A stretch of DNA of 64,000 nucleotides from Escherichia phage P896: sequence record OL451225.1; one strand, 5' to 3'. The first letter of the stretch is position 1. Each line of letters begins with the position of its first letter. A program made the position numbers and the translations under genes. Positions 31,203 through 39,816 of this stretch are shown piece after piece. Below the pieces are notes generated by a model, which was not told where the DNA came from, searched no databases, and saw only the letters and a list, made by a program, of their open reading frames with translations.

Positions 31203-31817
31203 TCAGTAAGAAAGAACGGAAAGATTCCATAATTTATAGTCTTCCCATCTATAAATGCTCTCAATAGAGTCCACGCGTAGCGTAGTTCCCGCAGGGAACA
31301 TCATCTCATCTTCATCATTTACTAATTGTAAGTTTGAAGAACGAGTTATTTCAGGATATAGTCCGTTGAACTCTTCAGGAGGTGCCGCACAAATCATTTT
31401 AAAAATCGCTTCCTGATAATCAAATGCGAATGGTGCATCATTAATACAGAAAATATTTTTGGTTCCATAGAAGCTAAAGGAAGCAAAGTTACGCGCAACA
31501 CTGAAATCTTTGGAGAAACTCATTACACGGTCAAACTCAATCGTAGCACCAACACATCCTACGGTTTCAAGATATGCCAAAGTTTTCTTAGAAATCCCGC
31601 GATATAACTTACCAGGCACAACAGAAGTCAAATTCTTACGAATAATTTTGTTCAAAGTTTCCTGGATAGTGTCTGGCTTATTTTCCATGCACTGCCAGAG
31701 TGTACTCTGTTCCAACTCAGAGTAAATTTCATCAATTTCAATCTGGGTATTTTCGCGAAAATATTCACATTTAACTGCATTGATGTACTCTGCTAATTGG
31801 TGACTTGCGTACAGCAT
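31203..31817 (-). CDS. ModA/ModB-family mono-ADP-ribosyltransferase (R-S-ExE class)
   Basis: Track ORF 31203..31850; likely start at ATG 31817 (MLYASHQ...). Motifs in order: LYRG (Arg), SFSKD (S-x-S), DEDEMMF (ExE). Which of the pair is modA and which modB is not resolved. Confidence 0.7.
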   Translation of the reverse strand: MLYASHQLAEYINAVKCEYFRENTQIEIDEIYSELEQSTLWQCMENKPDTIQETLNKIIRKNLTSVVPGKLYRGISKKTLAYLETVGCVGATIEFDRVMSFSKDFSVARNFASFSFYGTKNIFCINDAPFAFDYQEAIFKMICAAPPEEFNGLYPEITRSSNLQLVNDEDEMMFPAGTTLRVDSIESIYRWEDYKLWNLSVLSY

Positions 31818-31848
31818 TTTATTATCCTCATCAGTAGTTGATAGGAAC

Positions 31849-31885
31849 ATCTTAACATGTCTTATTGTGCTTGTACACAGTCAAG
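31849..31885 (-). promoter_or_regulatory. Early promoter cassette (TGTACA / 17 bp / TAAGAT) with ATCAACTACTG leader
   Basis: Minus strand: TGTACAagcacaataagacatgtTAAGATgttcctATCAACTACTGATGAGgataataaaATG. Confidence 0.5.
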
Positions 31886-32422
31886 AACATAATAATCACC
31901 AACAAATCCAGCATCAACTATCACGAATTTCTGGTCAACTGGAACAAACCATTCAAGCTCAGAATCAATCATGTCCATGTATTCTTCACGTCTTAACGTT
32001 GCCGCCTGTTCGGAACCAGAAGCAGTATTGAAGAATTCCAGTGGGACGTCAAGCGCGATTTTGCGCATCGCATCATGGTAACAAAAAGCTTTGGTCTGAT
32101 TCAATCTGACGATAGTCCTAGTCACATATTCCATTGCAGCAAAATCTCTGGCAATACCATAGTCTTCTGTAAAGGAGGTTATCCTTCCAAATTCAAAAGG
32201 TTGCATTGATTCTTTTGCTTCATCTAACAAATCAATCTCTTGTTGGGTAACCCCGCGATACAAGACTGTATCGGGTATAGATAACCTTGACTTGATGATT
32301 GAGTTAACGTTTGAATGCAAGGTCTTATCAACCTTTGATGTGCGGCATTCAAATAATGAAGCTATCTCCATTTCATTAAATTTTAACTGGTTGGGTTCGG
32401 TATCAGATTTGATGATGTTCAT
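31862..32422 (-). CDS. ModA/ModB-family mono-ADP-ribosyltransferase (R-S-ExE class)
   Basis: 186 aa; motifs VLYRGV (Arg), ITSFTEDYG (S-x-S/T), SELEWFVP (ExE); adjacent to its paralogue as modA-modB are in T4. Confidence 0.7.
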   Translation of the reverse strand: MNIIKSDTEPNQLKFNEMEIASLFECRTSKVDKTLHSNVNSIIKSRLSIPDTVLYRGVTQQEIDLLDEAKESMQPFEFGRITSFTEDYGIARDFAAMEYVTRTIVRLNQTKAFCYHDAMRKIALDVPLEFFNTASGSEQAATLRREEYMDMIDSELEWFVPVDQKFVIVDAGFVGDYYVLDCVQAQ

Positions 32423-37444: not shown

Positions 37445-37485
37445 ATTAACCTCGCTTCATGAAGGCATTAAAAATCTGGTCATCA
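37441..37485 (-). repeat. Direct repeat copy 1 (gene-junction cassette: last 12 codons + stop + 5 nt + ATG)
   Basis: catattaacctcgcttcatgaaggcattaaaaatctggtcatcaa matches 37801-37845 at 42 of 44 positions. Confidence 0.8.
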
Positions 37486-37805
37486 ATATCAGTAGGCGGT
37501 TCTTGAGCTTTGACCCAAGCCCCTTCCAGAATGTCATTTGCTTCAGTAGATATCATGACCCCAATTTCAGGGTTTCCGGTTATCCAGGCTGCACAATCGC
37601 GGACATTCTTTTTATCAAATGGATAACCACGATTATCTTCACAAGGCCCATTCATTGTCATAAATGAACGAGCCTTTATGATAACATCATCTTTAACGAT
37701 AATATAACCAATCGCCTGATTAAACCGTGGCTCACGAAATTCATAATGGGCATTACCATCATTATTGCTCGCCAGTTCAAAATTCAGAAAATTATAATAA
37801 CTCAT
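37446..37805 (-). CDS. Hypothetical protein ending in DDQIFNAFMKRG
   Basis: 119 aa ORF; C-terminal 12 residues and the downstream junction are shared with the next gene upstream. Confidence 0.5.
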   Translation of the reverse strand: MSYYNFLNFELASNNDGNAHYEFREPRFNQAIGYIIVKDDVIIKARSFMTMNGPCEDNRGYPFDKKNVRDCAAWITGNPEIGVMISTEANDILEGAWVKAQEPPTDIDDQIFNAFMKRG

Positions 37806-37845
37806 ATTAATCTCGCTTCATGAAAGCATTAAAAATCTGGTCATC
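37801..37845 (-). repeat. Direct repeat copy 2 (gene-junction cassette)
   Basis: catattaatctcgcttcatgaaagcattaaaaatctggtcatcaa; see copy 1. Confidence 0.8.
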
Positions 37846-38241
37846 AACTGAATATACAGGGGTTTCCAGAAGTTTCAAAAGACTGTTTTTGATGTACTTA
37901 CCCGGGATACCCTTAACAATACTGTCATTCAACTCATTATCAGGGTTGATGTCTTTAAATTCAAACCCGTCAAACTCAACCTTGTCAGGAATACCGTCAG
38001 CGAAAAAATAAACCAATTGGTGCATTGTATTGCGCGAAAATAATTTAGACTTGACCGCAATAAGTTCTTGCCAATGGTTTAATTCTTTGTTAAGAAGTTT
38101 ATGAGCAAACGTAATTCTATTATCACTATCAACAAGAAAATAACCCAGGTATTGAATCTCGTCGCTCCAAAACACCCTGTATGCCTGCGCATTTGGATTT
38201 TTACAACGAAGTTTTTTGATAACCAAATTTCTGTTAATCAT
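37807..38241 (-). CDS. Hypothetical protein ending in DDQIFNAFMKRD
   Basis: Track ORF 37807..38376; likely start at ATG 38241 (MINRNLVIKK...) in a TAAAATG overlap with the upstream lipoprotein gene stop. Confidence 0.5.
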   Translation of the reverse strand: MINRNLVIKKLRCKNPNAQAYRVFWSDEIQYLGYFLVDSDNRITFAHKLLNKELNHWQELIAVKSKLFSRNTMHQLVYFFADGIPDKVEFDGFEFKDINPDNELNDSIVKGIPGKYIKNSLLKLLETPVYSVDDQIFNAFMKRD

Positions 38242-38596: not shown

Positions 38597-38800
38597 TTAT
38601 TTTTCGTTAGAACGATAATCACATTCAAAAACTTTATTGTCATTAACAAAGGCTTTAACCAGCGCATTATTCACTTCTGCATACTGCACTGTAACCCATT
38701 CAATCATATTTTTGTCACTGACATCCAGCGCGGTTTCTTTGGTAAACATATTACCATTTTCAAACCAACCAATAAACAATACGTTCTCTAATTTATACAT
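38597..38800 (-). CDS. Hypothetical protein
   Basis: 67 aa ORF in track. Confidence 0.45.
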   Translation of the reverse strand: MYKLENVLFIGWFENGNMFTKETALDVSDKNMIEWVTVQYAEVNNALVKAFVNDNKVFECDYRSNEK

Positions 38801-39118
38801 TTAGATTTCCTCACAAAACGCCCAGGCAGCGTGATAAACTGTTGCGCCTTTAGTATCATTTAAACAAACCACGTCAACAGGTGCAATCACACGATAAAGA
38901 CGGGGTTCTCCTCCATATGAGCGAGCTGCTCTTCCTGCATAGATACGCGCCAAACCAATATCTTCAGTAAAAAACACACGCCCTAAATTTTTCTTACGCC
39001 CAACTTCTGACAGAACACCAGTTGCATCAGGAGGACAAAGCATATTTTGGATTCCAGCATTAGAGCTTGACCCATGATAATAAACTTTGTATTCTGCCTT
39101 GCAATCAATGGTTTTCAT
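38801..39118 (-). CDS. Hypothetical protein with possible H-G-S (PARP/diphtheria-toxin-class) ADP-ribosyltransferase-like signature
   Basis: 105 aa; YHGSSSNAGIQNM..PP....G then GRVFFTEDIGLARIYAG resembles the PARP catalytic-core pattern HGS..NFAGIL......PP....G...GKGIYFA; too short for a canonical domain, so speculative. Confidence 0.5.
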   Translation of the reverse strand: MKTIDCKAEYKVYYHGSSSNAGIQNMLCPPDATGVLSEVGRKKNLGRVFFTEDIGLARIYAGRAARSYGGEPRLYRVIAPVDVVCLNDTKGATVYHAAWAFCEEI

Positions 39119-39154
39119 TTTATTCTCCAGTAGTTGATAGGGTCATTATAACAT

Positions 39155-39177
39155 AAGAAAAAGGGGCTGTAAGCCCC
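39155..39177 (-). terminator. Intrinsic terminator-like hairpin
   Basis: ggggctgtaagcccc hairpin followed on the minus strand by a T-run; next is a TATAAT plus ATCAACTACTGGAGA leader for the downstream gene. Confidence 0.5.
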
Positions 39178-39186
39178 TTTGTTCAC

Positions 39187-39538: not shown

Positions 39539-39578
39539 ATTATGTCCTAAGACAAGGGGCTTGTACACTATTTTAATT
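39539..39578 (-). promoter_or_regulatory. Early promoter cassette (TGTACA / 17 bp / CATAAT), PeSL-like
   Basis: Minus strand: aaaatagTGTACAagccccttgtcttaggaCATAATgattccatactgagttacac. Confidence 0.6.
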
Positions 39579-39816
39579 CATTAATTAAATGAAAATCTTG
39601 TGCATTGAAAGTAATGAAAAAATAATCATTCCCTTCAACTGAAGCATGACAGGCAACACTACACCAGCGCCTTGCTCTGTTCAAGGAGCAATCCAAAATT
39701 TTAAAAGGCTTCAGACCAACAATGGCAGCTGTTCTTTTATTATGCTCACAAATATCAGCATACTTTTGGAGAGCTTCTTCAGATTTGAACTGGTAATGCA
39801 CATTAACTAATAACAT
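39568..39816 (-). CDS. Hypothetical protein (adjacent to gene 41, where T4 carries dmd)
   Basis: 82 aa ORF with the ATCAACTACTGATGAGGA leader upstream; T4 Dmd is 60 aa, so equivalence is only positional. Confidence 0.4.
   Translation of the reverse strand: MLLVNVHYQFKSEEALQKYADICEHNKRTAAIVGLKPFKILDCSLNRARRWCSVACHASVEGNDYFFITFNAQDFHLINELK

Follow-up and report, generated by a model that had tools for sequence, protein, structure and literature searches.

Escherichia phage P896 is T4-like and belongs to the genus Gaprivervirus (Straboviridae). It encodes a 105-residue protein, here called mini-ART, that is a minimal protein of the ADP-ribosyltransferase (ART) fold, in the branch with Arr and the NAD lobe of Tpt1/KptA. 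The predicted fold, the conserved strand-1 H-G-[ST] motif and an alignment of the wider family with Arr all place it there. An ART outside the R-S-E class with an H-G-S start had been proposed in a preliminary description of this DNA, which also set the protein apart in class from the R-S-E enzymes Alt, ModA and ModB; both proposals agree with the results presented here.

The mini-ART gene and its expression signals

The window is the whole 64,000-nucleotide stretch that was analysed. Within it, the mini-ART ORF begins with ATG, ends with TAA, and coincides exactly with positions 38801..39118. The same 105-aa product had been given in the preliminary description without its strand, which is minus. 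Both strings quoted there, KVYYHGSSSNAGIQNMLCPPDATG and GRVFFTEDIGLARIYAG, are present in the translation. The gene and its putative signals are as follows.

38801..39118, minus strand: mini-ART coding sequence, 105 aa, orthologue of RB69ORF040c (ORF list, PHROG 2110, AF2 model, ART-fold matches)
39125..39128, minus strand: Shine-Dalgarno sequence GGAG, 6 nt 5' of the mini-ART ATG (read directly from the sequence)
39145..39173, minus strand: sigma-70-like promoter match, CTTACA-17 nt-TATAAT with a TG extension (consensus scan, 10/12; a pattern match only)
39160..39180, minus strand: terminator-like hairpin AAAGGGGCTTACAGCCCCTTT with a T-rich tail, at the end of the upstream gene (terminator scan, 9 pairs)

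The terminator-like hairpin overlaps the -35 element of the promoter-like site. The transcript of the upstream gene may thus terminate, and that of mini-ART begin, within a single short stretch (39145..39180).

Mini-ART shares 99-100% identity with proteins of phages vB_EcoM_RZ and DCP80, and 85% with its RB69 orthologue. It matches PHROG family 2110, annotated 'unknown function', over its full length (E 1e-58). Homologues were found by tblastn in 609 phage records, with identities of 35-100%; the hosts of these phages span more than 30 genera, including Escherichia, Klebsiella, Acinetobacter, Aeromonas and Vibrio. Pairwise comparisons of mini-ART with its orthologues gave dN/dS values of 0.09-0.17 at dS of 0.7-1.2, which indicates that the gene is under purifying selection. 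Judging from the sequence comparisons, mini-ART is a real gene and a chance ORF is ruled out, because 609 records carry homologues and dN/dS is about 0.1.

Predicted fold and conserved residues

The AF2 model of mini-ART (pLDDT 87.8, pTM 0.80) has the layout beta1-alpha-beta2-alpha-beta3-6 and contains the split beta-sheet NAD-binding core of the ART superfamily. The top Foldseek match in the PDB was Arr, with a probability of 1.00. Further ART-fold matches, lower in rank, were OspC3, PARPs, pertussis-like toxins, RES/ParT and DarT. In BFVD, the first match beyond the close T4-like homologues (E 5e-7) was a 94-aa protein that bears the name 'Ms Rifampin ADP-ribosyl transferase'. Structure prediction and fold comparison, proposed as a check in the preliminary description, thus predict an ART fold for mini-ART, with Arr as its best counterpart in the PDB.

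Conservation was assessed in an alignment of the wider family (A2), which comprises 58 sequences down to 29% identity. H15, G16, A57 and Y60 are invariant in A2, and P29, P30, E38, R41, F49, T51, A61, G69, G70 and G91 are nearly so. Four motifs stand out.

39068..39076, minus strand: H15-G16-S17, putative strand-1 HG[ST] NAD-ribose-binding motif (H15 and G16 invariant in alignments A1 and A2)
38987..39007, minus strand: E38-V-G-R41-K-K-N44, acidic/basic loop before strand 2 (E38 and R41 at least 90% conserved in A2)
38960..38974, minus strand: F49-F-T51-E-D53, strand 2, at the position of Arr Y49/T51 (F49 and T51 at least 90% conserved, aligned with Arr-ms Y49 and T51)
38930..38941, minus strand: Y60-A-G-R63, helix after strand 2, second aromatic (Y60 invariant in A1, A2 and A4)

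A strand-1 His (or Arg) followed by G-[ST] is a membership feature of the ART superfamily and is present in mini-ART, where Ser or Thr is conserved at position 17 beside the invariant H15-G16 in families down to 29% identity. H15-G16-S17 aligns with H19-G20-T21 of Arr-ms, and E38-x-G-R41 with Arr-ms E40-A-G-R43; the K-K-N extension of the latter loop is specific to the family. The two aromatics some 11 residues apart to which the preliminary description had pointed can be identified as F49, on strand 2 together with a Thr, and Y60. H-Y-E enzymes have a Tyr on strand 2 and a second aromatic about 10 residues further on; mini-ART retains the aromatic character, but the first position is Phe, with Tyr in only a few family members.

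In the model, residues 94-97 (V94-Y95-H96-A97) form strand 5, and no conserved acidic residue was found on it among the 58 sequences of A2. With such a strand 5, and with Arr and Tpt1 as the nearest kin, the tentative placement in the PARP/diphtheria-toxin H-Y-E class made in the preliminary description is not supported. E103 is the sole acidic residue near the C-terminus, and both E103 and H96 are kept only inside the T4-like clade. Since its conservation stops at that clade, E103 was rejected as a candidate catalytic Glu.

Sequence relationship to Arr

Searches of Pfam, NCBIfam and the PDB sequences with mini-ART as a single sequence gave no match. A profile of the T4-like clade found no match in the PDB either, and the clade alone aligned weakly with Arr (hhalign, 7.7%). 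The A2 profile, run against 177,635 PDB sequences, matched only Arr-ms (E 4.3e-4) and Arr-2 (E 0.036). The hhalign comparison of A2 with Arr-ms reached a probability of 93.9% (E 1.6e-7) and paired H15 with H19, E38 with E40, R41 with R43, F49 with Y49 and T51 with T51. In addition, 1.84 billion representatives were searched exhaustively with a profile, which gave 252 relatives at E<=1e-3. Among 54 multidomain relatives, 28 were matched by the Pfam Arr-ms model exactly in the shared domain (best E 1.8e-9), several of them above its 25-bit gathering score.

Because mini-ART alone and the T4-like clade gave no firm match, the connection to Arr rests on these intermediates and on the fold. Taken at the level of sequence, the alignments indicate that mini-ART is homologous to Arr from strand 1 to strand 3. 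The profile search that the preliminary description had put forward therefore reached Arr through the wider family and came back empty for the protein by itself.

Earlier records of the family

The family is already known from computational prediction and sporadic annotation, and the statement in the preliminary description that such an activity was unrecorded for this phage group was too strong. In GenBank, the homologue already goes by '(rifampin) ADP-ribosyl transferase' in several records from phages of Acinetobacter, Pantoea, Klebsiella and Vibrio. As reported by Iyer et al. 2022 (PMC9503650), a predicted ART adjoins dmd in Escherichia, Shigella and Salmonella phages, an arrangement listed as 'p0068-family ART + Dmd'. 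The p0068-family ART is probably the gene described here, because a site directly 5' of dmd in Escherichia phages fits that description. The authors assigned p0068 to the H-Y-[EDQ] clade (PMC9503650), whereas mini-ART has no conserved E, D or Q at the third position and has Arr and Tpt1 as its nearest kin. We found no experimental work on mini-ART in the literature.

The wider family and its domain architectures

Outside the T4-like phages, relatives occur as small stand-alone proteins or as domains of polyvalent proteins. Many are domains in proteins of 200-3900 aa, and matches at E<=1e-20 lie in proteins of up to 3924 aa. The domain is thus also built into large multidomain proteins that carry virion or LPD modules, a feature of the effector domains of polyvalent proteins from phages and conjugative elements. 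The fusion partners include ART-PolyVal (8), Nudix (3) and DUF7178 (3), as well as lambda-type portal, tape measure, LPD23, CHAP, 2H phosphoesterase, GNAT, ddrB-ParB and Toprim domains. The Pfam ART-PolyVal domain is separate from the mini-ART domain, and both occur in the same polypeptides. Three proteins (P0153, P0154 and P0131) combine the Arr-like domain with ART-PolyVal and a Nudix or 2H/Acb1-like phosphoesterase domain, and one of them is fused to a lambda-type portal. Iyer et al. 2017 described polyvalent proteins as effectors delivered with the DNA (PMC5512222); those with the mini-ART domain are virion-associated and presumably injected.

In cellular genomes, only three loci were found among 185,579 bacterial species. 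Two of them are in Patescibacteria, and their neighbours are uninformative. The third (L059) lies in an assembly of Flagellimonas marina (NZ_JBHSCL010000010.1, 178,077 bp), and its ART is a T4-like-clade copy, 70% identical. The size of the contig and its content, with a T4-type Rnl2 RNA ligase and further phage-like genes near the ART, suggest a complete T4-like genome of the Klebsiella/Enterobacter-phage type within the assembly of a marine flavobacterium (Flavobacteriia), either as contamination or as a real association. An RNA-repair context suggested by its Rnl2, HAD_SAK and Zeta-kinase neighbours was dropped, as the contig looks like a T4-like phage genome. No recurrent gene partner was found among 113 neighbouring ORFs at 15 loci that are not T4-like; NADAR, Nudix, Thg1 and a poly(A) polymerase-type nucleotidyltransferase each occurred once among these neighbours.

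Gene neighbourhood and the relationship to dmd

Read along the coding strand, the helicase gene 41 is followed by a goF-like ORF, a second ORF whose function is unknown, mini-ART, dmd, sp, several small ORFs and the primase gene 61. The gene next to mini-ART is located as follows.

38597..38800, minus strand: dmd (PHROG 2102 'Dmd', E 2e-33; RZ annotation)

The mini-ART stop codon abuts the dmd start codon (TAAATG), and in RB69 ORF040c and dmd overlap by 4 nt. In T4, dmd directly follows gene 41 with no ART in that interval, so the three genes between 41 and dmd are extra here. The goF-like ORF (39568..39816, minus strand, 82 aa), directly after gene 41, matches PHROG 2980 'goF mRNA metabolism modulator' (E 4e-20).

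With an iterated Dmd profile, Dmd was found immediately downstream of the ART in 13 of 56 ART-carrying phage loci. At other loci the ART, 62-91% identical, precedes unrelated genes, often with equally tight coupling. Their products are a Cys-rich acidic protein of 41-46 aa, lipoproteins, small membrane proteins, proteins of 150 aa or a homing endonuclease. The ART lies within the 41-61 interval in about 24 of the 56 loci and outside it in about 30. As the pairing of ART with Dmd fails both across these loci and in T4, the two genes seem to be neighbours because both reside in a plastic region rich in anti-defence genes, and not because they form a dedicated toxin-antitoxin (TA) module. The anti-defence or exclusion genes beside mini-ART are dmd, sp and a pair of ORFs whose tail resembles AdfA.

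We also observed several features of the surrounding genes. In some T4-like phages (L005, L015, L016 and L017), the dmd slot is taken by an acidic protein of 41-46 aa that contains two CxxC-like pairs (MEEVECVVCLC...CTDCD...). In other phages its occupant is a lipoprotein resembling spackle or a membrane protein of 55-60 aa, and all are tightly coupled to the ART stop codon. The sequence DDQIFNAFMKR[DG] closes both of the adjacent ORFs with the AdfA-like tail (37807..38241, 144 aa, PHROG 8539, and 37446..37805, 119 aa, PHROG 4122; both minus strand). This tail matches the last 14 positions of AdfA (anti-DarT factor gp61.2) in Pfam weakly and below the cut-off (E 3e-4). The ORFs occupy the T4 gene 61.2 site and may be diverged or split AdfA relatives.

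Proposed function and alternative explanations

We lean towards the view that mini-ART acts as a minimal ART of the Arr/Tpt1-NAD-lobe branch and ADP-ribosylates a host or defence-related acceptor. Its own promoter would drive early transcription of the gene, jointly with dmd and sp. The protein would bind NAD+, with H15 and S17 holding the ribose hydroxyls and F49 and Y60 sandwiching the nicotinamide, and would pass ADP-ribose to a host or defence-related acceptor, with takeover or counter-defence as the outcome. The nature of the acceptor is the weakest step of this scheme. By analogy, an O-nucleophile (a nucleic-acid end or a small molecule) might be preferred over an Arg or Asn side chain, because there is no catalytic Glu, the E-x-G-R-K-K-N loop is conserved, and the group modified by the nearest characterised kin is a hydroxyl in the case of Arr and a phosphate in that of Tpt1. 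AcrIF11, which is structurally close and modifies a protein Asn, speaks against a non-protein acceptor. The bolder proposal, that mini-ART is the founding member of a minimal-ART family carrying out NAD+-dependent ADP-ribosylation of a non-protein acceptor, is a tentative one to which we give a rather low probability. Candidate acceptors would be an RNA or DNA terminal phosphate or hydroxyl, or a nucleotide-derived immune signal. If this proposal is true, T4-like phages and polyvalent proteins would use a new chemistry to disable host defence or RNA processing.

That the resemblance to ARTs is accidental and the protein not ART-like is scarcely credible: the single-sequence searches of Pfam and the PDB were empty, but independent fold and profile evidence converges on the ARTs with the motif residues aligned. 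A pocket for NAD or ADP-ribose might have been kept without transfer, in which case mini-ART would be an NAD+ glycohydrolase, or a binder or sponge for immune signals or other NAD-derived molecules. Such an NADase, or a protein that binds without catalysis, is conceivable because no conserved acid corresponds to Arr D84 or to the strand-5 Glu. In addition, so small a protein leaves little room for an acceptor site, and the Nudix and 2H/Acb1-like fusion partners act on soluble nucleotide derivatives. However, Tpt1, with a hydrophobic residue at the third motif position on strand 5, and Arr, with D84 elsewhere, are both active transferases (PMC8120803), and the conserved E38, R41, D53 and R63, which lie away from the nicotinamide pocket, hint at a site for catalysis or for an acceptor. 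We regard loss of transfer as rather unlikely.

Iyer et al. 2022 proposed that the ART is the toxin of a type II TA pair with the downstream Dmd as antitoxin (PMC9503650). The abutting or overlapping reading frames in P896 and RB69 would suit such a pair, and toxicity is plausible because the domain serves as an effector in polyvalent proteins. Nevertheless, Dmd follows directly in just 13 of 56 loci, and elsewhere the conserved ART precedes unrelated genes; about 30 of the loci are outside the 41-61 region altogether, in T4 no ART separates dmd from gene 41, and counteracting host RnlA/LsoA is an established function of Dmd in its own right (PMC9503650). This makes the TA pair improbable. A genuine Arr, which would ADP-ribosylate rifamycin-type antibiotics and so shield the host RNA polymerase that the phage needs, is suggested by the name in some GenBank and UniProt records and by Arr being the only sequence-detectable relative of the family. 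Against the NCBIfam rifampin_ARR equivalog model (NF033144), however, relatives score about 25 bits, over only its first 70 positions, where the cut-off is 130, and mini-ART itself gives no score. The DPN[VL] motif with D84, the SN[YF] loop and the M[RK][DE]xL region (motifs per PMC6092378) are all missing as well, and we consider an antibiotic-modifying role very improbable.

The favoured reading, a minimal ART acting on a host or defence-related acceptor, concerns a widespread domain, found in 609 phage records and in large polyvalent proteins, whose gene sits amid anti-defence genes. It also corrects two database habits, namely the name 'rifampin ADP-ribosyl transferase' and the interpretation as a Dmd-controlled toxin. 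Few ART domains are as small as mini-ART, which also lacks the customary catalytic acid. Its chemistry and its acceptor could therefore help to define the minimal requirements of an ART. The question is directly testable, since the orthologue RB69ORF040c sits in a genetically tractable phage.

Comparison with known ADP-ribosyltransferases

The hallmarks of Arr are HGT, Y49, a 100%-conserved catalytic D84 in DPN[VL], the SN[YF] loop and a C-terminal M[RK][DE]xL that contacts rifampin (PMC6092378; PMC8120803). Arr enzymes (PF12120; PDB 2HW2, 9IAF and 9IBA) comprise 143-150 aa, compared with 105 aa in mini-ART, which has no counterpart of the N-terminal ~13 residues of Arr or of its C-terminal, rifampin-binding helix bearing M[RK][DE]xL. 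HG[ST] is kept, and Y49 is replaced by Phe. D84 and DPN are absent; in a by-eye comparison of the two sequences, the matching region reads L-N-D-T. The SN[YF] loop is also absent, with T-G-V aligned in its place, and mini-ART carries a basic R-K-K-N insertion. In the by-eye comparison mini-ART stops at Arr-ms residue ~112, so that Arr-ms residues 113-143 have no counterpart. By these sequence features, mini-ART is not a true Arr.

Tpt1/KptA (PDB 9LD3, 7KW9 and 6E3A) shares with mini-ART the strand-2 pattern [H/F]-x-[ST]-x-D in its NAD lobe. The profile-profile comparison of the family with that lobe was insignificant (8%). Mini-ART is a single domain that corresponds to the NAD lobe only. It lacks the N-terminal winged-helix RNA lobe of Tpt1/KptA, and with it residues one to three of the R-H-R-R catalytic tetrad; Phe stands in place of the second His. 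Without an RNA-binding lobe, mini-ART does not qualify as a Tpt1. The phage anti-CRISPR mono-ART AcrIF11 (PDB 6KYF) is a close structural match, nearly as close as Arr and Tpt1. It is an H-H-D enzyme with catalytic D115 and a protein Asn as target (PMC8120803), whereas in mini-ART we detected neither sequence similarity to AcrIF11 nor a conserved Asp equivalent to D115.

T4-group phages are the classic model of viral ADP-ribosylation, and the textbook list of their enzymes consists of Alt, ModA and ModB, all of the R-S-E class. This class assignment is documented for the three T4 enzymes (PMC5512222). The preliminary description had placed two R-S-E ARTs elsewhere in the window, in agreement with two adjacent 'ADP-ribosylase' genes of the 99%-identical phage vB_EcoM_RZ, from whose annotation the following positions were mapped.

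31203..31850, minus strand: ModA/ModB-like gene
31862..32422, minus strand: ModA/ModB-like gene

A Pfam search of these two genes gave no significant match, only DRAT at E 0.01, and for this reason Pfam appears to have no model that covers such R-S-E enzymes. Like Alt, ModA and ModB, mini-ART belongs to a T4-group phage and is predicted to use NAD. Unlike them, it has a strand-1 His and no ExE, and it is therefore placed on a different branch of the superfamily. Beside the ModA/ModB type, the T4 group thus gains a third, structurally different type of ART that is very small and resembles Arr and Tpt1.
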